A DNA stretch of 64,000 nucleotides from an uncultured delta proteobacterium. GTDB lineage: Bacteria; Desulfobacterota; Binatia; Bin18. A model generated the notes under the pieces. It was not told the origin of the DNA. It worked only from the letters and a program-made list of their open reading frames with translations, and made no database searches. Of the stretch, positions 9,831-31,504 are shown in pieces (position 1 is the stretch's first letter; every line of letters begins with the position of its first letter). The stretch lies in the NCBI GenBank assembly GCA_963733195.1, contig CAVTCR010000062.1, positions 224,001 through 288,000 on the forward strand, read 5' to 3'. The position numbers and the translations under genes were made by a program.

Positions 9831-10629
9831 TTACTTTCCCTTAAACACCGGCTTGCGTTTCTCCCGCCAGGCGCGGTGGGCTTCGTGGCTGTCTTCGGTC
9901 TGTCCGAGCAACATGAAGCGATAGATATCGGTCTGTGCCGCGTCCTTGAGCGAGGCGATATCTAACCCTTTGTTGAGCGACTCTTTCGCCATCTTCACTG
10001 CTAGTGGCGGTAATGCCGCCAAGCGTTTGGCGTAGTTGTATGCCAAGTGGCATCAGTTCAGGCAGTGGAACGACTTTGTTGACCAAGCCAACACGATAGG
10101 CTTCTGCTGCATTGATACGTTCACCGAGTAGTACCATCTCCATGGCTTTGCCACGACCGACATAACGCGCGAGACGCACTGCGCCACCGTAGGCTGGAAT
10201 GATCCCTAGCGGAACTTGCGGTAGTCCTAATTCAGCATTTTCCGAGGCTAACAGGATGTCACCACATAAGGTGATCAGACAGCCAATGCCGACGGCAAAG
10301 CCGTTAATCGCTACCACGACCGGTTTGGGATAATCGGCAACCGCATTAAACACCGCAAAGCCACGCGGACTCACCGTCGCCAGATGTTCACCAGCAGAGT
10401 TTACACGGTGGGTCTTCGGATTGCCCAAGTCCGCACCGGCAGAAAAGGCTTGCGTACCTGTGCCGGTTAGCACTGTCACCAACACTTCTGGATCGTCTTC
10501 CATCACTTTGAACACATCGACCACATCTTCCGACATCTGTGTAGTCCAGGCATTACGCTTCTCTGGTCGATTGAGTGTGACAGTGGCGATGTTCTCCGCT
10601 TTTGCATAGATAAGTGTTTCGTATGACAT
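9831..10629 (-). CDS. Enoyl-CoA hydratase/isomerase (crotonase) family, frameshift near 10045
   Basis: TLNRPEKRNA, AFSAGADL, PKPVVVAING; C-terminus AWREKRKPVFKGK in ORF 9831..10046. Confidence 0.88.
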
Positions 10630-10707
10630 GAGGCCTCCGTATTGCGTGTTGCGTAATGCGTAAAAATTAACCACCACCCTCCCCCTTACGTTTTACGTTT
10701 CACGTGC

Positions 10708-16735: not shown

Positions 16736-17041
16736 ATGGGTAATTTTGTCAAAGTGGCCCAGGCAAGTGAAATTCCCGCTGGTCAAGTCAAATGTGTAGA
16801 AGTTGGCGACAAGCGGATCGCGATCTTCAACCTCGATGGAACGTATCATGCAGTAGATGAGGTCTGTCCCCATCAAGCCGGGCCACTAAGCGAAGGAGAG
16901 ATCGAGGGCACGGTCGTCACCTGCCCGTGGCATGGGTGGGAGTTTGATATCACTACGGGTGTGAATCGTGACGATCCAGACACGGTACTAGAAAAGTTTG
17001 CCGTAAAAGTTGAGGGAAATGATATTCTGGTTGAGGTGTGA
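16736..17041 (+). CDS. Rieske [2Fe-2S] ferredoxin
   Basis: CPHQAGPL...CPWHGWEFD; RBS GAGGAGG. Confidence 0.92.
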   Translation: MGNFVKVAQASEIPAGQVKCVEVGDKRIAIFNLDGTYHAVDEVCPHQAGPLSEGEIEGTVVTCPWHGWEFDITTGVNRDDPDTVLEKFAVKVEGNDILVEV

Positions 17042-17211
17042 GGATAGGAAACATGATGCGTAAAACGTGGTGCGTGATGCGTAAAATGTAAGCCGTAACA
17101 TGTGGACACAACACGTACCACGCAACACGTCATAACATAGTGCGTGTTACATGGCCTCACTTTCTATATCTGCGCTTTCTTCAGTCACCAAGCTCTGTTA
17201 ACGTCTTTTCC

Positions 17212-18285
17212 ATGAAAACTCCCTTGTCCTCTTGGCATCGCGCTCACGGAGCGACTTTCGTGAATGACCGTGGCATTGAACTGCCGGAGCGATTCACCGA
17301 TCCAGTCGAAGAGTATCAAGCTGTTCGGGAAAAAGCCGGTTTAATCGACCTGTCGTTTCGCGTTCAAGTTCGCATGACTGGTGAGGATCGGATTTCATTC
17401 CTCCAAGGTATGATCTCGAATGATGTCAAAGCGTTACAGCCCGGCACCGGCTGCGCGGCAACGTTGCTAACCGAACAAGGTCGCATCGTTGCTGATCTTC
17501 GCGTGTATGCCTTGGACAATGCGCTCCTTCTCGATGTCGATGCACGAGTCAGAGAGAAAATGATAGAGGCACTCTCACGTTTTATCATTGCTGACGATGT
17601 CGAGATGGAGGACCTGAGTGAACAGCAAGTGACGTTTGCTGTACAGGGACCGACGGCAGCTCAGATCCTTGCTACTGCCGGACTGTCGCTTTCGTTAGAT
17701 AAGCCGTTTCAACACCAGGAGGTAAAACTGGCGGGTATTACCGCTCGGGTTATCCGAGTGAGTGACACTGGCGAGGAAGGATACGAAGTCCTCGCCCCAG
17801 TTGAATATGCAGAACAATGCTGGACAGCACTGCTGCACGCAGGTGAACCCTTGGGGCTTCGTCCGGTCGGTCTCGCCGCACTGCAAATGCTTCGGGTTGA
17901 AGCAGGCATTCCGTGGTACGGCCTGGATATGGATGAAGGACGGATTGTCCTGGAGGTCGGCTTAGAACATGCTATCAGTTTTAAGAAAGGCTGTTACTTA
18001 GGACAAGAAGTCGTCGAACGGGCAACAGCGCGTGGCCATGTCAATCGTAAACTGAGTGGACTGCTGCTTCATGGAAATACACTTCCAGAAAATGGCACAA
18101 AACTCTTCCACGGTACTCAAGAAGTTGGCTGGGTAACAAGTGCCGTTCAGTCGCCACGTTTCGGGCATCCGATTGCGCTCGGATATGTGCGACGCGAGCA
18201 TCTCACGCCTGGTACTCAACTACGGATTGACAGCCACGGAACGCCCATGATAGCGGAAGTGGCAACGCTACCGTTTTCTCGGTGA
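17212..18285 (+). CDS. ygfZ: YgfZ/GcvT-family folate-binding protein
   Basis: GcvT fold with the YgfZ signature KGCYLGQE. Confidence 0.8.
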   Translation: MKTPLSSWHRAHGATFVNDRGIELPERFTDPVEEYQAVREKAGLIDLSFRVQVRMTGEDRISFLQGMISNDVKALQPGTGCAATLLTEQGRIVADLRVYALDNALLLDVDARVREKMIEALSRFIIADDVEMEDLSEQQVTFAVQGPTAAQILATAGLSLSLDKPFQHQEVKLAGITARVIRVSDTGEEGYEVLAPVEYAEQCWTALLHAGEPLGLRPVGLAALQMLRVEAGIPWYGLDMDEGRIVLEVGLEHAISFKKGCYLGQEVVERATARGHVNRKLSGLLLHGNTLPENGTKLFHGTQEVGWVTSAVQSPRFGHPIALGYVRREHLTPGTQLRIDSHGTPMIAEVATLPFSR

Positions 18286-18311
18286 TTCCGAGTCTCGTTC
18301 AGGAGGGAGTT

Positions 18312-18461
18312 ATGGCTCAGCTTGGTAAACGTTATTTTTGTGAAACCTGCGGCACGGAAGTGCTCTGCAACAAACCTAGTACTGGTAACGATGGTAACCT
18401 CAATTGCTGTGACAAGGACATGCAGTTGAAAGAGGCAAAGCCGTTGCCGTCATCGGACTAA
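18312..18461 (+). CDS. 49-aa desulforedoxin-like Cys-rich protein with C-terminal KPLPSSD (not in ORF track)
   Basis: RBS AGGAGG; MAQLGKRYFCETCGTEVLCNKPSTGNDGNLNCCDKDMQLKEAKPLPSSD; CxxC...CC. Confidence 0.85.
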   Translation: MAQLGKRYFCETCGTEVLCNKPSTGNDGNLNCCDKDMQLKEAKPLPSSD

Positions 18462-18533
18462 GGGCACTCATTTTCGGCTTTTAGCTTGTAGGGGCGCAGC
18501 ATGCTGCGCCCCTACTATTTTCGGCTCTTTCCT

Positions 18534-20066
18534 ATGCCCACCGCCGATCTGCTCCTTCATGGAGGACGAATCCTCACACTTTCTTTGACTAGACCAACTG
18601 CCGAAGCGATTGCCATCGCCGATGGCAAAATTCTCGCCATTGGCAAAGAACGTGATCTACGTGTACTCACTTCTCCTCGCACGCAAAAGATTTCTTGCGC
18701 TGGACGCACGGTTATTCCAGGGTTTATTGATCCGCATTTGCATCTTTTCTCCTGGGCCAGCCGCTTGTGCGGCGTTGACGTCAGCACTGCTCGTTCGTTT
18801 GGAGAAATTCAAACACTACTCACACACCGCCTTTCTTCCCTTGCTTCAGGAACCTGGCTCCGTGGCTATGGCTACGACGAGTTCTTTTTATATGAGAAGC
18901 GTCACCCTACTCGCTTCGATCTCGACGCCGTTTCCATTACACATCCCATTATCCTCCGTCATCGTACTGGCCATGCTGCGATTTTGAATAGTATGGCGTT
19001 ACAGCAAGCAGGAATCGATCGATCGTTCACACCACCCGCAGGCGGCATTGTGGAACACGACCCAGCTACACGTGAGCCGACAGGTGTGGTCTATGAGCTA
19101 GAGAAATTTCTCCGCACAGTTATTCCGCCACTACCTGATGACGAATTTATGACCGCAGTACAGCAAGCGAGTAACGAATTACTCCGTCACGGCGTAACCT
19201 CATTTCACGATGCCAGTGCGGGGAACACGCTGGAAGATTTCGCGTTGTTTCAGCGATTGCGGGACGACGGGATTCTCCAGTCTCGCGCTACGGTCATGAT
19301 CGGTAGCGATTCCTTGCCTCAGCTTATAGAGGCCGGATTGGTACCTTTCAGTGAAGATGAACATCTTCGTTTAGGTAGTGTGAAGATCATGTTGCACGAA
19401 GGTAGCGGAGAGGTATACCCACCACTTGAGGAATTGAACGAAATGGTGTGGCAGGCTCACCAGCACGGTTTCCAAGTGGCATTACATGCAGTCGAAGAAG
19501 GACCGATTTGCGCTGCACTTGAAGCCATCGGGATCGCGTTACAACGTCAGCCACGCACAGATCATCGCCATCGCATTGAGCATTGCACGCTCTGTCCGCC
19601 GCCGTTTATTGAGAAGCTGATTGAAACCGGGATCGCCGTTGTTACGCAGCCCGGGTTTCTTCATTTTTACGGCGAAAAATACCGAGCTGGAATCCCTCCA
19701 GAACAACAGGAGTGGTTGTATCGGACAAAAAGCTTGCTCGCTTCAGGAATTCCGGTCGCTGGCAGTTCTGATTGTCCGATTGCTCCGCTAGCGCCTCTAA
19801 TAAGCTTGCAAACTGCAATGACAAGAAAGACGAGAGAGGGAATGCCTCTCAACCCTCAGGAACAGCTTCCCCTGAACGATGCTTTGACATTATTTACCAG
19901 TGCCGGTGCTTGGCTTAGTTTTGAAGAAGGACAAAAAGGAAAGATTATGCCCGGTATGCTGGCCGACCTCGCCGTGCTTGATGGTGACTTGCGCACGACA
20001 CCAACAGAGGAGATTGGTAAGCTCAAGGTGGTTATGACGATGGTTGGGGGAAAGATTAGTGACTGA
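18534..20066 (+). CDS. Amidohydrolase_3 (YtcJ/NfdA-like) metal-dependent hydrolase
   Basis: PGFIDPHLH, GHAAILNS, ALHAVEE, RHRIEH, GSSDCP, GKIMPGMLADLAVL. Confidence 0.9.
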   Translation: MPTADLLLHGGRILTLSLTRPTAEAIAIADGKILAIGKERDLRVLTSPRTQKISCAGRTVIPGFIDPHLHLFSWASRLCGVDVSTARSFGEIQTLLTHRLSSLASGTWLRGYGYDEFFLYEKRHPTRFDLDAVSITHPIILRHRTGHAAILNSMALQQAGIDRSFTPPAGGIVEHDPATREPTGVVYELEKFLRTVIPPLPDDEFMTAVQQASNELLRHGVTSFHDASAGNTLEDFALFQRLRDDGILQSRATVMIGSDSLPQLIEAGLVPFSEDEHLRLGSVKIMLHEGSGEVYPPLEELNEMVWQAHQHGFQVALHAVEEGPICAALEAIGIALQRQPRTDHRHRIEHCTLCPPPFIEKLIETGIAVVTQPGFLHFYGEKYRAGIPPEQQEWLYRTKSLLASGIPVAGSSDCPIAPLAPLISLQTAMTRKTREGMPLNPQEQLPLNDALTLFTSAGAWLSFEEGQKGKIMPGMLADLAVLDGDLRTTPTEEIGKLKVVMTMVGGKISD

Positions 20067-20228
20067 GCGATGAGTAACGAAGATCTGCACGTAAGGATGT
20101 CACATGATGAAGTGAAAGACGTGTCTAGGTTTGCCTTTCACTCGATTCATCTGTTATGTGCATCCTACTGCACTACTTCTGAATTTCCTATCTACGTTTT
20201 ACGTATCACACTTTACGTTTCACGCCTT

Positions 20229-20939
20229 ATGTCTTTCTCAGCCGTTCTCTACGAAAAAGAAGGTCCGTTGGCGATTGTCGCGCTCAATCGGCCCAAGATG
20301 CTCAATGCCTATAACGTCGAGATGCGTGATGATCTCTATGAGATTCTCTGCGCTGTGCGAGATGATCCCGAGGTCCGGGTCATGATTCTGCGTGGGGAAG
20401 GTTCGGCTTTTTCTACTGGCGGGGACGTCTCAGAGTTTGGCTCGGCTCCATCACCAACCAAAGCCCGAGAGATTCGCTGGCGACGTAATGTATGGGGAAC
20501 GTTATTGAGTCTGCCTCAACCAACCATCGCCGCAGTGCATGGGTTTACGGTTGGTGGCGGTATGGAAATGGCCCTGCTCTGCGATATCACTATTGCCGCA
20601 GATGACACAATTTTCTTCTTACCAGAGACTGGACTGGGAATGATTCCAGGGGTTGGTGGTACACAAACTGCGCCACGTGCTATTGGTCTGGGACGCGCAC
20701 TGGACATGGTTTTGACCGGCAGAAGAGTCAACGCCGAAGAGGCGAGGAACATTGGTCTGGCGAACCGCGTTGTCCCGCGGGAGACCCTCTTGACGGCAGC
20801 TAAAACTCTAGCGTACACACTTGCCAAATGTGATCCCAGGGTTCTTACCCTGGCGAAGCAAGCAATTCGTCAAGGAGCAGATCTTCCTCTGGCTGAGGGA
20901 CTTCAGTTAGAGAAGCGTCTGTTCGCGATGATTGCTTGA
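20229..20939 (+). CDS. Enoyl-CoA hydratase/isomerase family
   Basis: LNRPKMLNA, FSTGGD, GGGMEMAL, PETGLGMIPG (both catalytic Glu present). Confidence 0.9.
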   Translation: MSFSAVLYEKEGPLAIVALNRPKMLNAYNVEMRDDLYEILCAVRDDPEVRVMILRGEGSAFSTGGDVSEFGSAPSPTKAREIRWRRNVWGTLLSLPQPTIAAVHGFTVGGGMEMALLCDITIAADDTIFFLPETGLGMIPGVGGTQTAPRAIGLGRALDMVLTGRRVNAEEARNIGLANRVVPRETLLTAAKTLAYTLAKCDPRVLTLAKQAIRQGADLPLAEGLQLEKRLFAMIA

Positions 20940-21010
20940 TAGACAGATTATGGCTTCTTGCTAAAAGCTAATAGTGAACGGCGAAATGACAACGTAATAA
21001 AGGAGCGGCA

Positions 21011-22570
21011 ATGAACACTGCGAATTTTTTGAGCATTCCTGGCATGATGTTTCCGGATCAGGAACTCATCGTCTTTGAAGGAACCCGCCTGACCTATGCC
21101 TCAGTGCTGGAGCGCGTGCGGCGACTGGCAACGAGCCTGCAAAAGCTCGGGGTGAAACCAGGCGACCGCGTGGCGGCGCTACAGACCAACTCAAACCAAT
21201 TTATTGAGACCTATTATGCCACTGCAACTCTGGGCGCGACCTTCGTGCCGCTCAATTATCGCGCTAAACAGCCGGAAATTGAGTACATGGTCACCGCGGC
21301 TGATGTAAAGGTCCTCTTTGTCGGCTCACGGTATGTAGACCAAATTAAACAACTCCAGCCCAAATTCACCAGCGTGACGCATTATGTGGCGATGGAAGGA
21401 TCGTCACCCGGAATGTTGGATTTTGAGAGACTTGGTTGCAGAAAGGTTCACCGGACATCGACGATGCTGAGGTGGACGAGAGTGACGTAACGATTCTCAT
21501 GTACACCAGTGGTACAACCTCGTTGCCCAAAGGTGTGATGCTTACCTACGGCGACTTCACCAACTACGTCGTCGGCACGGTCGAGATGGCCGATGGCACC
21601 GACCGTGGGACTTCGCTCTTGTGCGCCCCGCTCTATCACATCGCTGGCACGGCCAACATCATGACCGCGATCTGGGCAGGCCGTAAGATCGTCGTCCTAA
21701 AACAGTTTGAACCTAGGGAATGGCTGGAAGCTGTCCACAAAGAGAAGATCACTCACGCCTTCGTCGTGCCAACGATGATGAAGCAACTCATCGATCACCC
21801 CGAGTTCTCGAAGTTTGATATGTCGAGCTTGCAAAATCTGTCCTATGGTGGCGCACCGATGCCGTTCCCGGTAATCCGCAAAGCCATTGAGGTCTTCCCA
21901 AAAGGAACAGGTTTCGTCAACGCATTCGGACAAACCGAAACGACTTCAACCCTGACCGTCCTTGGCCCAGCCGATCATCGCCTCGACGGCCCCCAGGCTG
22001 AAGTCGAGCGTAATCTCAAACGTCTAACTTCGGTTGGCTTACCCCTTCCTGATGTCGAAGTACAAGTGCTCGACGACGATAATAAACCCCTTCCTGCCAA
22101 TGAAATCGGTGAAGTCGTTATTCGTACCCCGCGCGTCATGAAAGGCTATGCTGGCCAGGAAAGCGCGACAGCCGCCCTGCTGGATGCTGACGGCTGGCTG
22201 CATACGCGTGACATGGGTTATCTCGATGAAGATGGCTATGTCTATCTCGTTGGTCGCAAAGACGACATCATCATCCGTGGTGGTGAGAACATTGCACCGG
22301 CAGAAATCGAAGCGGTGCTTGCACGCGCATCCGTCAGTTGATGAAGCCGCAGTGATCGGTGTCCCTGATGTTGACTGGGGACAAAAGATCGCTGCGTTTG
22401 TCGCTTTACGTCCCGGAAAAACGGCGTCGAATGATGAACTTGCGGATTTCTGCCGTCAACGACTGGCGAGTTTTAAGAAGCCTGAGATCATTCGCTTTGT
22501 TGACGCGCTACCGAAGAACCCATTGGGCAAAATCCTGAAGAAGGAACTGAAAGCTCAGTTTACCGAATAG
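21011..22570 (+). CDS. AMP-dependent acyl-CoA ligase (two frameshifts)
   Basis: YTSGTTSLPKG, FGQTE, GWLHTRDMG, RKDDIIIRGGENI, LPKNPLGK; ORFs 21011, 21436, 22148. Confidence 0.9.
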
Positions 22571-22613
22571 CAACCGTAGGGGCGCCGCCTACCGTGCCCC
22601 TATAGACATTTTG

Positions 22614-23390
22614 ATGCCCGCCCTTACCTACGAAAAACGCGGCAACGTTGCTTGGATTCAGCTCTGCCGTCCTGAAGCTGGGAATAAACTTACTCCCACG
22701 ATGGCAGAAGAGCTGACTACTTGCTGCCAAACCGTCGAAGAGGACGATGAGCTAGTACTTGCTGTGCTCACTGGCAGCGGAAGTGCTTTTTGTCTCGGCC
22801 TTGAATATCCTGCGGATAAAACAGGAACCGCAGCAGCCCAAGTCATTCAAGCACAATTTGGTGAGCTGCGGTGTGTTGAAGCGATCGCAGCGATCACCAA
22901 ACCGACACTGGCGGCACTCAACGGTGACGCGCTTGGTATCGGCTTAGAACTGGCCCTTGCCTGTGATTTGCGACTTGCTATCGAAGGTTTCCATTTTGGC
23001 TTTCCGCAAGTCACGCAAGGATTAATGCCGTTCGGCGGCGGTACGCAACGTTTGCCCCGGTTGGTCGGTCAGGCCAAAGCGCTTGAGTTAATTCTCACTG
23101 GCGAAAGCATTGACTCGACAGAAGCACAACGGATCGGGCTCATAACCTCTGTTGTTCCGGCTGCCACTTTCACAACCCGTGTTGATGAGGTAGTACAAAA
23201 TCTGCTAGAGAAAGGTCCCATTGCGCTCCGTCTGGGGAAAGAAGCTGTACACAAAGCGATGGATCTGACCCTTGATCAGGGGCTACGTTTAGAAGAGGAT
23301 CTGTACGCACTGTTGCAAACGACCCAGGACCGCGCTGAGGGAATACAGGCGTTTCTCAGCAAGAAAAAACCAACGTTCACAGGACAATAA
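22614..23390 (+). CDS. Enoyl-CoA hydratase/isomerase family
   Basis: KPTLAALNG, GIGLELALACD, GGGTQRLPRLVG, DRAEGIQAF..KKKPTF; second catalytic Glu position is Gln (FPQV). Confidence 0.88.
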   Translation: MPALTYEKRGNVAWIQLCRPEAGNKLTPTMAEELTTCCQTVEEDDELVLAVLTGSGSAFCLGLEYPADKTGTAAAQVIQAQFGELRCVEAIAAITKPTLAALNGDALGIGLELALACDLRLAIEGFHFGFPQVTQGLMPFGGGTQRLPRLVGQAKALELILTGESIDSTEAQRIGLITSVVPAATFTTRVDEVVQNLLEKGPIALRLGKEAVHKAMDLTLDQGLRLEEDLYALLQTTQDRAEGIQAFLSKKKPTFTGQ

Positions 23391-23413
23391 TCGCTCTTAC
23401 AGGAGGAAATCGC

Positions 23414-23530
23414 ATGGCAAACCAGATCGGCAAAATGTATCTCTGCGAGAAATGCAACTCGCAGGTTATCGTCACCAAAGGCGGTAACGGTACCTTAAAG
23501 TGTTGCGGCGGTGAGATGAAGAAGAAGTAA
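23414..23530 (+). CDS. 38-aa desulforedoxin-like protein (not in ORF track)
   Basis: RBS AGGAGG; MANQIGKMYLCEKCNSQVIVTKGGNGTLKCCGGEMKKK; CxxC-x15-CC as in desulforedoxin. Confidence 0.85.
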   Translation: MANQIGKMYLCEKCNSQVIVTKGGNGTLKCCGGEMKKK

Positions 23531-23571
23531 TCCTCGACTGTTCGCATTAGCTATCAGCCTTCAGACAGTAG

Positions 23572-23594
23572 GGTGGGCATTGCCCACCTTTTCT
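23572..23594 (+). terminator. GTAG-type REP hairpin with T-tract, likely terminator of the cassette
   Basis: GGTGGGCAtTGCCCACC followed by TTTTCT. Confidence 0.55.
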
Positions 23595-23674
23595 GTTTCT
23601 GGCTTGCAGCACCTTTGCACCACAGCTATATTGTGGACTAATAAGGTCCAAGAAAACCAACGAGGATATCGCGC

Positions 23675-23971
23675 ATGCCTGCCCCGATCACTGCCGAAGA
23701 GATTCACTCATTAATTACCCAAGCCATCCCTGATTCGCAGGTGCAGGTGCGTGACACAACCGGCGGCGGTGACCATTACGAAGCACTTGTTGTTTCTTCC
23801 TCGTTTTCTGGCAAGAACAAGGTCAATCGTCACCGTATGGTGTATGGTGCGTTACAAGACGCGATGGTACAGCGTATTCACGCGCTTGCGTTAACCACAC
23901 TGACACCTGAAGAGTTACAACAAGAGCAATCAGCAAGTGTCGTCAACATTCAACCCCGCAAATCCCGCTAA
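23675..23971 (+). CDS. bolA: BolA/IbaG family protein
   Basis: GDHYEALVVS..F.GK..V.RHRMVY.AL...IHALAL. Confidence 0.92.
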   Translation: MPAPITAEEIHSLITQAIPDSQVQVRDTTGGGDHYEALVVSSSFSGKNKVNRHRMVYGALQDAMVQRIHALALTTLTPEELQQEQSASVVNIQPRKSR

Positions 23972-23984
23972 GGAGGAGTCGCCA

Positions 23985-24305
23985 ATGGCAGAAGACGTTC
24001 TCAAAAAGATTGATGAGCAAGTGAAACAGAACAAGATCATGCTGTATATGAAAGGAACACCTGACTTCCCCATGTGCGGATTTTCTGCAGCAACGGTTCA
24101 GGTACTGGATTCGTATAAGGTCCAATATGCCAGCCTGAACGTGCTCGAAGATCCTGCTATTCGTGACGGAATCAAACGCTACGCGAACTGGCCGACGATT
24201 CCGCAGTTGTACATTAATGGTGAGTTTGTTGGTGGCTGCGACATCATCCGCGAAATGCACGCGAAGGGCGAGCTCGAGCCGTTGATTCGTGCGGCGCAGA
24301 GTTAA
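23985..24305 (+). CDS. grxD: Monothiol glutaredoxin Grx4
   Basis: MKGTP..PMCGFS, WPTIPQLYINGEFVGGCDI. Confidence 0.95.
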   Translation: MAEDVLKKIDEQVKQNKIMLYMKGTPDFPMCGFSAATVQVLDSYKVQYASLNVLEDPAIRDGIKRYANWPTIPQLYINGEFVGGCDIIREMHAKGELEPLIRAAQS

Positions 24306-24461
24306 GAGCCATAACACCGTAGCGTGCGCTCTGTGCACGAAGAACTTTCTTTTTTCGTCATGCCTGTGTAGATGGGCATCCAACCTTTCTAGGGGCAGGT
24401 CAGAGTACCTGCCCACCCTTTCCCCTTCCCTCCCACCCGCAAATTGACTACAGTTTGGACT

Positions 24462-25054
24462 ATGAGCACCCAAACCGCTTTTGTCTCGACCGAGACCTTC
24501 ACGCAGAAAGAATTCAAACGCTGGCTTGATGAGCGGCCAAAGTCAGACATCAACCACTACGAGTTACTGCGAGAGAGAATTGTCATGAGTCCACCGGCTG
24601 GCTGGCCACATGGGTCTGTAGAAACCAATATCTCATACACCACTCGGAACTTCACCCGTATCCACGTGGTCTCGGCATCGTGCTTGGCTCCAGTGCAGGA
24701 TACGACTTGCCTTCTGGTGACACTGTCGAACCGGACATTTCCTTCATTTCCGCCGCACGGCTTGCTGCCGGACCAGAACCACAACTAGGGAAATTCCTTC
24801 GCATCGTTCCCAATCTGGTTGTCGAGATTCTCTCGCCCGCAACTGCGCAGAAAGATCGGACGGAAAAAAAAGCAATTTACGAAGAAAACGGCGTGGAAGA
24901 GTATTGGATTGTCGATACCAAGCGCCGAGAGATTACGATGTACAACCTCTCGGGTAAGCGCTTCGGTCGTGGAAAAGTGTACACCGCACGCGATACGGTG
25001 CGCTCGCGAGTATTAGCTGGATTCACGCTTTTAGTGAAGGAAGTGTTCGCATAA
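24462..25054 (+). CDS. Uma2-family endonuclease (frameshifted)
   Basis: YELL..IVMSPP...H; EPDISF, PNLVVEILSP, EKKAIYEENGVEEYWIVD. Confidence 0.85.
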
Positions 25055-29536: not shown

Positions 29537-31245
29537 CTACTGCGGCAGAGCAAACACAATCAGCGCACTGCCCTTGCTTGCTAATGGCGGCTCGCCGGCA
29601 ATGGTGGCAACAATGCCGCCACCACCCGAGGGCATGGCGATGTATTGGCGACCACCAATCTTATACGTCGCTGGCTGACCACGCACCGAGGCTCCAGTCT
29701 GGAACTGCCACAGGACTTTGCCGGTTGCATCGTCAAACGCTTTGACGTGCCCTTCTTGATTGCCAGTAAATACCAGTCCGCCCCCAGTCGCCAGGGTTCC
29801 ACCCAACAACGGATATTTTTCCTTATGTCGCCATTTCACTGCGCCAGTTGTCGCATCAATCGCGGAGAAGTGTCCATAAGAGGTACCGTCATCACCTTGG
29901 CTGCCATTCCAGCCACCACCCCAAAACGGAATCCCTTGAATGAACATTGCCGACGCTTTTTTCATCTGCATACAGCTTTCGATTACTGGCACATACATGA
30001 ACTTCGTCATCGGACTATATGCAGCAGTGTAGGAACTATTCTTACCACCCGGTGCTCCGGGGCAGATCCATTCTTTTCCTTCTTCCTGTGGGACGAACTT
30101 TGGGTCGACGATAGGTCGACCATTCTCGTCGAGCCCCTTGGCCCAATTAAGCTGGTCCACATATTGTGAACCGTGAAGGAATTTTCCTGACGTACGATCC
30201 AGAACATAGAGAAAGCCATTCCGGTTGGGCTGAGCCAGCGCTTTCACGTTGCGACCGTTACGCATCACGTTGACAAGAAACAGATCAGTGTTCCCGTCGT
30301 AATCCCACACATCATGTGGAGTGAACTGGAAGTGCCATTTCACTGCACCAGTATCGGGATTCATCGCTAAGACGGAGTCGGTATACAAATTGTCACCCTT
30401 ACGAGCGTCGCCGTTCCAGTCTGGGGCTGTATTTCCCGCCGCCCAGAATAGCACATCTTGTTCGGGGTCATACGAGCCCGGTAATCCAGGTGGGGCCGCC
30501 ACCATACTTCCAGGAATCGCCTTCCCACGTTTCGACGCCTTTTCTCTCCCTCTCCTGGAGTTGTATACGTACGCCACTTGCGCTCTCCTGTTTTAACGTC
30601 ATAGGCATCAATGTACCCACGGATTCCGTACTCGCCGCCAGCAATGCCCACAACCACTTTGTCTTTCACCACCAACGGAGCAACGGTCGAGCTAAAGCCG
30701 TTGGCATATTTATCGATCTCGACATTCCATACCACTTTGCCGGTTCGGCGATCGAGCGCGACCAATCGCGCATCGAGTGTTGCCATGAAGACCTTGTCGT
30801 CAGCAATGGCAAACCCGCGGTTGGTTGGCCCGCAACACACGCGCATGTCATCTGGCAGCGGATGATCGTATTTCCAAATTGGTTCGCCAGTGACCGCATC
30901 GAGCGCGAAAGCGTGATTGTACGAAGCAGTGAGGTAGAGAATGCCATCAGCAACAACTGGTGACGCTTCGAGTTGTCCGGGAATACCAGTTTGAAACACC
31001 CAAGCGACGGAAAGCTTCTTCACATTCTTTTTGTTAATGTCTTTGAGTGCACTATATCGCCAACTGTGATAGTCCCCGCCGTACATTAGCCATGCTGATG
31101 GGTCTTCTGTTCCTTTCAGCAAGCGTTCTTGGGTGACCGGTTTGAGATCGTAGGTCTTCTCTTCTCCAGCCTGTGTTCCCCCAGGTAGCAATAAGAGCAG
31201 ACCGACAAGGCTTTTTACGAGTTTCTCTCGCCAATGACCAACCAT
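29537..31245 (-). CDS. PQQ-dependent alcohol dehydrogenase paralog (frameshifts near 30480-30545)
   Basis: CCGPTNRG, GGEYG, GNTAP, TPHDVWDYDG; ORFs 30367..31272 and 29537..30577. Confidence 0.88.
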
Positions 31246-31504
31246 AGCGCTTCCCTCCTTAACATGGGCCATGTTCCTCTGTAGGTGGCGGCAAATTACT
31301 GAGTTTTGCTGGGCCGATCAAGAGAAGGCAGCAGACTCTAGACCTGGCACACCAAATGGGGCAATAAGGAGGAAAGAGTCTAGGAGTCTAAGAGTTGGGG
31401 AGTCGAGAAAAAAGAGACGGAGAAAGGACAAGCGCTTATTTTTTTATCCTTTTCGCCGTTTCCCCTTTTCGCCATTTCGCCCAGTAAACAAGGAGGGTTA
31501 CGTC

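Follow-up and report, generated by a model that had tools for sequence, protein, structure and literature searches.

The window analysed here is a stretch of 64,000 nucleotides (positions 224001-288000 of contig CAVTCR010000062.1, GenBank assembly GCA_963733195.1) from an uncultured delta proteobacterium assigned to Binatia, in which two very small genes of the desulforedoxin fold flank an amidohydrolase, two crotonases and a ligase of the ANL family. Our analysis of this cassette and its relatives points to a possible new carrier system, in which an acyl-coenzyme A (acyl-CoA) ligase homologue would make a protein-CoA thioester on the C-terminal Asp of the tailed mini-protein, the Asp being a gene-encoded succinyl or masked beta-alanyl unit that a crotonase pair, a CoA-transferase and the amidohydrolase would turn into a carrier arm or use for a tethered pathway. 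As part of the same reading, for and against which we see the case as evenly balanced, the system would span Actinomycetota, Pseudomonadota, Chloroflexota, Myxococcota, Binatia-like and syntrophic lineages. The mini-protein/ligase system is real, widespread and apparently undescribed, and the covalent-carrier reading is a well motivated hypothesis.

A mini-protein family with an Asp-ended tail

The tailed mini-gene (18312..18461, + strand) encodes a desulforedoxin-fold protein of 49 amino acids with the four desulforedoxin-type Cys, a further Cys19 and a tail ending in Asp; it is the proposed carrier half, a role derived from the model of a homologous pair. The short mini-gene (23414..23530, + strand) encodes a tail-less desulforedoxin-fold protein of 38 amino acids that corresponds to the N-terminal domain of fused forms. 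An initial annotation of this DNA had called the two open reading frames (ORFs) homologous and given each an AGGAGG ribosome-binding site, and both points are borne out: 16 of 38 residues are identical (42%, E 7e-10), and AGGAGG lies 5-7 bases upstream of each ORF, at 18301..18306 (read from the sequence) and at 23401..23406, both on the + strand. No other mini-protein with this motif occurs in the genome that holds the window (G000, 93% complete). Both have the three-strand knuckle fold with CxxC...CC that places them in the desulforedoxin fold (PF06397), the short protein scoring 29.1 bits, above the cut-off of 23, and the tailed one 16.2 bits, below it. The best structural match of the tailed protein is 1cfw (Z 4.3; root-mean-square deviation, rmsd, 1.5 Å; 34 aligned residues), low Z values being expected for folds of ~36 residues. 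The arrangement is not due to chance, since the tailed gene is found in 17 of 18 genomes of the same family, with the short gene ~5 kb away in most.

Among 1.84 billion representatives searched with a profile, 1009 matched at E <= 0.001. The C-terminal residue is Asp in 27 of 28 close homologues and in 110 of the best 150 of the 1009 profile matches, Glu taking its place in 5 of the 150. Many of these best 150 are fusions of ~100 amino acids that join the tail-less to the tailed domain, and for that reason we read the window's two genes as the halves of a single unit. The two-domain fusions next to acyl-CoA ligases that the initial annotation had mentioned as unverified do exist. At least 120 loci match a DNA pattern in which G-K-R-Y, one Lys, one Pro and an Asp followed by a stop are held constant; of the 120 listed, 119 are family members, and the record titles name Actinomycetota, Alpha-, Beta- and Gammaproteobacteria, Dehalococcoidia, Myxococcota, Binatia-like and syntrophic lineages. 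The conserved features of the family are GKRY and the tail ending in Asp. The window-type tail reads P-L-P-S/A-S-D, and the two residues ahead of the terminal Asp vary (SSD, SAD, ASD, STD, KTD); the proposed invariance of a terminal Ser-Asp thus holds for the tail and the Asp and fails for the Ser.

The CxxC...CC metal site has turned out to be dispensable: all four desulforedoxin Cys of the tailed domain are kept in 25 of the 119 family loci and none in 85, while both window mini-proteins keep all four. A Cys-poor fused member is modelled with a predicted local distance difference test (pLDDT) value of 93.5, and its best structural match is desulforedoxin (Z 3.4, rmsd 1.4 Å, 36 aligned residues). 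As Cys-less members keep both fold and tail, the sequences place the conserved function of the family in the surface motif and the tail, with the metal site dispensable. The extra Cys (Cys19 in the window) occurs in 92 of the 119 members, preceded at that position by Leu in all 119. Cys19 was considered as a general thioester acceptor and rejected, as only those 92 members have it and the model does not name it as a contact, and a fixed Ser for phosphopantetheine-type attachment was rejected because neither Ser is invariant.

Searches of reference collections returned little for this family. Foldseek gave no match for the fused mini-protein model at E <= 0.001, NCBIfam had no model for the fused mini-protein at the threshold used, the PDB held no sequence relatives beyond desulforedoxin domains, and ESM Atlas returned only hypothetical or PF06397 clusters and one unconfirmed automatic 'PAAR motif' label.

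Several variants of the family were also seen. Fused two-domain sisters that keep the Cys end in Phe, Glu or Gly (P0046, P0099, P0105, P0109, P0121, P0123, P0136, P0172 and P0174), and a second fusion type of ~105-118 amino acids joins an unrelated N-terminal segment to a tailed domain with its Asp tail intact (P0091, P0096, P0100, P0101, P0104, P0111, P0113, P0119, P0137, P0142, P0152, P0163, P0164 and P0170). The tail at L036:4187-4327 and L037:3341-3481 has three Lys followed by Pro-Ser-Ser-Asp, and L036 has two copies of the short gene, with a ScoAB pair inserted between them. Of 8000 candidates scored, 6 appeared as fusions to larger proteins; each stands on a single contig and is probably a product of read-through or a frameshift. 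Stand-alone tail-less desulforedoxins at L043:7044-7175 and L045:6797-6919, by eye next to rubrerythrin- and Fur-like genes, probably belong to the ordinary redox type, outside this mini-protein family.

A ligase clade linked to the mini-protein

The window ligase (21011..22570, + strand), an ANL-family acyl-AMP/CoA ligase split over three frames, belongs to a clade that is linked to the mini-protein. All 92 linked ligases group together with support 1.0, to the exclusion of 15 other ANL enzymes of which 8 are from G000, although the clade is partly defined by similarity, its first 63 members having been chosen at 38% identity or more to the window ligase. Among 80 loci with flanks, 79 of them family members, the ligase is adjacent on the same strand in 45, lies within the cassette in 5 and is absent from the DNA fetched in 29; 25 of the genomes behind these 29 loci encode the ligase elsewhere. 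On plasmids the mini-gene adjoins an adenylate-forming enzyme in all six loci opened (of 19 records), with other neighbours that vary. The genome-level counts agree, with the proviso that large genomes were only partly scored and many genomes are incomplete. In 80 Acidimicrobiia genomes not chosen by feature, the clade ligase and the tailed gene are both present in 12 and both missing in 68. In 80 Dehalococcoidia genomes, likewise not chosen by feature, both are found in 50, the tailed gene only in 10, the ligase only in 1 and neither in 19; of the 51 Dehalococcoidia with the ligase, 50 thus have the tailed gene. Two of the 10 tailed-only genomes hold the clade ligase in pieces. Ligase and mini-protein have also diverged in step (Mantel r 0.66 over 43 pairs, reached in 0 of 999 permutations, a value that kinship inflates). 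The linkage of the mini-proteins to ligase, crotonases and amidohydrolase that the initial annotation had proposed therefore holds across phyla by neighbourhood and genome counts. The outcomes named there as fatal to the proposal, namely no gene linkage and a tail that is not conserved, did not occur in the neighbourhood and tail alignments.

The clade ligases keep the P-loop, active-site His, YGxTE, hinge and terminal Lys motifs, which place them among the ANL acyl-CoA ligases, and they keep Arg81 of the CoA site. Its equivalent in CBL, Arg87, binds the CoA phosphate (PMC6122825). Among the best 25 NCBIfam models none scores above cut-off for the ligase, and phmmer with the L072 ligase gave no match at E 1e-55. 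The Dehalococcoidia genome G264 (L213-L219) holds six clade ligases above 400 bits, most of them with a mini-gene pair of their own, and seven tailed genes in varied acyl-CoA clusters.

Predicted insertion of the tail into the acyl pocket

A complex was modelled in one run set for the adjacent fused mini-protein and ligase of locus L072 (Sphingobium scionense DSM 19371), with ATP and Mg and an alignment of 43 rows for each. Its score of 0.80 compares with 0.00 for the best of three controls; the pLDDT of the partner is at least 90, and runs agree in at least 95% of contacts. Of 157 solved pairs, 116 reach the mark applied to this score, as do 2 of 215 mismatched ones; these numbers are only a rough guide for a model with its own alignments and ligand. 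In the model the body docks through mini-protein residues 54-57, 68 and 70-71, joined by residues 3-4, 17 and 19 of the tail-less domain, on ligase residues 1-13 and 172-179; the view of the tail-less copy as a partner subunit accords with this contribution. Tail residues 89-96 also lie in the modelled interface, where Pro93, Ala94 and Ser95 touch ligase residues 263 and 287. The contacts on the ligase include 196, 197, 199, 200 and 203 (within 196-203, just after His194), 233-235, 261, 263, 285, 287, 289, 297 and 298.

These contacted positions are acyl-pocket positions of the ANL fold, so that the tail is predicted to line the acyl pocket. The L072 ligase was mapped to PheA and CBL numbering by motif alignment, and we take further contacts to match PheA pocket positions 236, 322, 330 and 331. 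PheA Phe234 and CBL His207, the equivalents of ligase His194, are at the active site (PMC6122825), and PheA 239, 278 and 299 are pocket positions (PMC3098103). Nine pocket positions are small and near-constant in the clade (mean volume 104, standard deviation 5, in 92 clade ligases, against 123, standard deviation 16, in 15 other ligases). Pocket residues this small and constant would suit a peptide and suggest one substrate across phyla. On the mini-protein, interface residues are more conserved than the rest (0.73 vs 0.54, with search-pattern positions removed). We know of no comparable solved complex.

A CoA-transferase as a possible stand-in for the ligase

A ScoA/ScoB clade (support 1.0 and 0.996) occurs in G175, G269, G299, G333 and G336, in which no clade ligase was found and all of which keep ECH1. 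The two-subunit enzyme stands immediately upstream of the mini-gene pair, in the usual slot of the ligase, in L052, L207 and L209, and directly adjoins the pair in these three loci and in L036. Both subunits score above cut-off for TIGR02428/TIGR02429, and with A and B subunits and the catalytic Glu in B they belong to the family I CoA-transferases; in the ScoB clade the catalytic Glu is kept and the next residue has changed from Asn to Ile. Family I CoA-transferases of this family commonly use succinate, of which an N-acyl-Asp may be regarded as an analogue. As acyl-CoA is the only product that a CoA ligase and a CoA-transferase share, a protein-CoA thioester is favoured over a direct amide. 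The LysW-type direct joining put forward in the initial annotation fits less well, because the ligase keeps its CoA-site residues and the transferase clade appears to substitute for it in some genomes.

Crotonases, amidohydrolase and family III CoA-transferase

The remaining enzymes of the cassette were followed with partner profiles in 80 of the 160 Acidimicrobiia and Dehalococcoidia genomes, selected for having (47) or lacking (33) the carrier. The profile of the crotonase ECH1 exceeds 210 bits in 43 of the 47 carrier-positive and in none of the 33 carrier-negative genomes, which makes ECH1 the most constant enzyme partner after the activator; the amidohydrolase profile exceeds 330 bits in 31 of the 47 and in none of the 33. 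In the window, ECH1 (20229..20939, + strand) has both catalytic Glu, the clade-specific Arg36, Phe73 and Arg86 and a short C-terminus. The unity of its clade rests on these shared residues and a score gap, as root support is low (0.54, with subclades at 0.78 and 0.97). The amidohydrolase (Amidohydro_3; 18534..20066, + strand), whose orthologue tracks the mini-protein, has its metal-ligand residues, and its orthology rests on the profile-score gap, narrow near 320-340 bits, because its tree lacks outgroups. The second crotonase, ECH2 (22611..23390, + strand), has Gln in place of the second Glu and an altered oxyanion motif; it is present with the split type of mini-protein and is probably a structural partner of ECH1. 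The fused type goes with a longer ECH1, whose N-terminal extension is weakly like crotonase C-terminal helices (hhalign probability 33-57%). The closest solved amidohydrolases, 3icj and 3igh, are uncharacterised, and the closest crotonases are generic, so that neither comparison hints at a cargo.

A condensed clade of family III CoA-transferases, with the catalytic Asp kept, stands beside the amidohydrolase in 23 fused-type loci. At L122:8541-9833 and in 22 other loci it is upstream of the amidohydrolase and carries an extra N-terminal part ahead of the Pfam match (residues 192-381). No orthologue of this dedicated enzyme was found in G000 (best 174 bits, against 350-490 for full-length members), which holds 63 family III domains, and family III enzymes of other kinds and many different clades flank many split-type loci. 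The idea that the tail Asp supplies a missing catalytic Asp in trans to family III transferases gained no support, the linked enzymes showing the usual mix of Asp-bearing and Asp-less members. A Sir2 deacylase lies directly after ECH1 in L253:7810-8688, L254:7298-8092, L256:8379-9158 and L260:6360-7163, in the last two in the gap between ECH1 and the ligase.

Proposed mechanism and alternatives

The mechanism that we propose starts from a pseudo-dimer of desulforedoxin folds, formed by the two mini-proteins, that would act as a protein carrier, with its C-terminal Asp as the acid activated by the ligase. In the modelled first step, G-K-R and L-x-x-K of the tailed domain, with a small number of residues from the tail-less one, would hold the body at the entrance to the acyl tunnel of the ligase, and the tail would thread through the acyl pocket. 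In the second, the ligase would adenylate a carboxylate of the terminal Asp, most likely that of the side chain, and transfer it to CoA; the product would be a protein-tethered aspartyl-CoA, in effect an analogue of succinyl-CoA, and some anaerobes may make the same thioester with the dedicated family I CoA-transferase. For these two steps taken jointly, we lean slightly towards acceptance. A third step, a cycle of loading, modification and release, is put forward tentatively and is on balance doubtful: the thioester would be the charged state of the carrier, cargo would be loaded from it onto the Asp, the ECH2/ECH1 pair (with the family III CoA-transferase in fused-type clusters) may act on the tethered species, and the amidohydrolase would cut the amide, free the product and reset the carrier.

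A number of observations weigh against this scheme. The modelled pair is a fused homologue from another phylum rather than the window proteins themselves, and the ligase side of the interface is barely more conserved than the rest (0.70 vs 0.64). His194, Gly265 and Tyr290 are not among the named ligase contacts, and since the model output consists of contact lists without an Asp-ATP distance, adenylation of the Asp is a deduction and not directly modelled; the bound tail could, on the model, be a plug rather than a substrate. Among the best 150 profile matches, 40 lack the terminal Asp, many of which look tail-less or read-through, and a fused sister group ends in residues other than Asp. Four Dehalococcoidia with the tailed gene (G267, G275, G286 and G307) show neither the clade ligase nor the transferase clade, and the clade ligase was not found in 3 of 29 other genomes (G153, G162 and G173); these seven may be incomplete. 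The counts are not independent, as the genomes are related. The swap of ligase for transferase is not strictly exclusive, given that G070 has the ScoAB clade alongside a clade ligase and G278 an unrelated ScoAB in the slot, and incompleteness of the genomes also counts against strict replacement. Finally, the amidohydrolase was not found in 16 of the 47 carrier-positive genomes.

Of the alternatives, the one that survives best is that the mini-protein is a non-covalent subunit or regulator. The acid activated by the ligase would then be a small molecule, and the tail would shape or plug the acyl pocket, acting either like an MbtH-type activator or as a pseudo-substrate inhibitor. The complex model supports binding of this kind as well, gene adjacency and matched divergence would fit any obligate partner, and the six clade ligases of G264, mostly with mini-gene pairs of their own and varied neighbours, agree with it. 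Against it, genomes that gave no clade ligase still hold the mini-genes together with ECH1 and the amidohydrolase, and there the mini-genes lie beside an unrelated CoA-transferase, a retention that makes a mere ligase subunit unlikely; the pocket, too, is uniformly lined by small residues across phyla, as if fitted to a peptide. We regard this alternative as unlikely overall, though it has a real claim.

Distinctly less probable is a CoA relay, in which the protein-CoA thioester would be a private CoA donor for CoA-transferases and small acids would then be processed off the carrier by the crotonases and the amidohydrolase. The dedicated family III enzyme at 23 fused-type loci, the other family III enzymes near split-type loci and the 63 such domains of G000 would fit a relay of this kind. 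The window cassette, however, has no such transferase and its genome no orthologue, the other family III enzymes nearby come from many clades, and a protein-bound donor would bring no clear gain over free succinyl-CoA.

A LysW-type amine carrier or Pup-type tag, whose Asp the ligase would join to an amine without CoA and from which the amidohydrolase would remove it, appears improbable. The parts are those to be expected of such a system: a metal-knuckle body whose flexible tail ends in an invariant acidic residue, a ligase that depends on ATP, and an amidohydrolase. The Sir2 deacylase next to ECH1 in L253, L254, L256 and L260 could be read in its favour; Sir2 genes are commonly found next to acyl-CoA ligases. 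Yet the CoA-site residues of the ligase are kept, the enzyme that appears to take the place of the ligase is a CoA-transferase, which cannot turn a free acid into an amide, and the mini-proteins are not strongly acidic (isoelectric points, pI, of 5.1 and 9.3).

We give very little credence to a single-use precursor, in which the modified terminal Asp would be cut off by the amidohydrolase to yield a small cofactor or metabolite, much as mycofactocin and PQQ are made. There is mostly one copy per genome in lineages with large expansions of acyl-CoA enzymes, and all of the enzymes could act on a single residue; with only the last residue fixed, however, the product would have to come from Asp alone, and a stable folded two-domain body is kept. 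That the mini-proteins are ordinary desulforedoxins, carrying electrons or metal in a redox step or in oxygen defence, can practically be discarded, for although both window proteins have the four desulforedoxin-type Cys, match 1cfw in fold and are flanked by Rieske, BolA and glutaredoxin genes, most tailed domains have lost all four Cys and yet keep fold, tail and ligase, no superoxide reductase was found in G000, and none of the four cassette enzymes is redox.

Gene integrity and surroundings of the cassette

The gene order between the two mini-genes is, by Pfam, Amidohydro_3, ECH_1, AMP-binding and ECH_1, all on the + strand. That the mini-genes open and close a co-oriented run is partly correct: the four enzymes do lie between them and an intrinsic-terminator-like hairpin (23570-23590) with a T-rich tail ends the cassette (23570..23600, + strand), but the + strand run begins upstream of the tailed gene, at the Rieske ferredoxin and YgfZ/GcvT-like gene. 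The reported absence of superoxide reductase holds in G000, where the domain PF01880 was not found, while a positive control was found in 3 of 14 genomes. The flanks (16736-18285 and 23675-24305) hold Rieske ferredoxin, YgfZ/GcvT-like, BolA and glutaredoxin genes. YgfZ is upstream of the mini-gene in 8 loci, and since these are confined to related lineages, its proximity is probably local synteny.

Aligned to its L126 homologue (89% identical), the window ligase has three single extra bases in its reading frame, near 21426-21429, 21440 and 22317. Contigs of run X1 lack the extra bases at 21429, 21440 and 22317 (one contig each, depth 3-4), and the breaks are probably assembly errors; we treat the gene as intact in nature. 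A crotonase (9841-10677), a Uma2 protein (24444-25054) and a second PQQ dehydrogenase (29537-31272) are also frame-broken in the window, consistent with indel errors in the assembly. Directly 3' of the tailed gene is a 12-bp hairpin (18488..18515, + strand), a GC-rich palindrome of a repeated family with 36 matches in G000, which may or may not end transcription. The gap between amidohydrolase and ECH1 has short low-complexity repeats at 20113-20200, with many indels in related contigs. RNA run X16 gave near-identical short contigs on the amidohydrolase, ECH1 and the ligase and none listed on the mini-genes; DNA carry-over is possible, and the run is not used as evidence.

Comparison with known systems

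In open-licence PubMed Central and bioRxiv (titles and abstract starts), we found no description of the mini-protein family, no ANL enzyme using the C-terminus of a folded protein as its acid and no protein-CoA thioester product; to our knowledge, no such enzyme with such a product is known. If the proposed system is real, many genes of soil, sediment and marine bacteria now labelled long-chain fatty-acid CoA ligase, enoyl-CoA hydratase or amidohydrolase carry a wrong annotation. Their products would be parts of one four-to-five-component system around a protein below the size that many gene callers accept. A ligase of this kind could serve C-terminal protein labelling.

The closest relatives by fold are desulforedoxin (1cfw/1dxg) and the N-terminal domain of desulfoferrodoxin (PF06397), which share the fold and the CxxC...CC pattern. 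Desulforedoxin is a dimer, which matches the paired or fused architecture of the mini-protein; the mini-protein differs in its unequal halves, its conserved Asp-ended tail, the loss of Cys in most members and its acyl-CoA enzyme partners in place of superoxide reductase.

By analogy, the use of an acidic protein C-terminus proposed here is shared with LysW/AmCP and Pup. LysW/AmCP has a C-terminal Glu in an EDWGE-type motif, the ATP-grasp loader LysX and an M20 peptidase, whereas the mini-protein system has a terminal Asp, an ANL ligase or CoA-transferase, Amidohydro_3 and, as proposed, CoA chemistry; no ATP-grasp (LysX/RimK) family is among the annotated cassette and neighbour families. Nor do the mini-proteins have the strongly acidic surface of AmCP, one of which has a pI of 3.98 (PMC11726168): the pI values here are 5.1 (7 acidic and 6 basic residues) and 9.3. 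The tail is also distinct from those of the Pup and ubiquitin-like proteins, having no Gly-Gly or Gly-Gly-Glu/Gln and belonging to a folded desulforedoxin pair with an acyl-CoA ligase homologue and, as proposed, CoA as acceptor.

Pup/PafA/Dop and ThiS/MoaD/ubiquitin-E1 share with the proposed system the use of ATP to activate the C-terminal carboxylate of a protein. MbtH-like proteins share with the mini-protein, on the evidence of our model, the features of a small protein encoded beside an ANL-fold adenylating enzyme and binding it, although neither mini-protein has an MbtH Pfam match (E up to 1). They bind the adenylation-domain surface away from the active site, whereas the mini-protein is modelled to reach into the acyl pocket. 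Malonate decarboxylase and citrate lyase combine a small carrier, a CoA-derived group and a charging ligase or transferase, in malonate decarboxylase together with a crotonase-fold heterodimer. There, a Ser holds the CoA-derived group, to whose thiol the acyl group is attached; in the system proposed here, which has no invariant Ser, the protein itself would be the acyl part.

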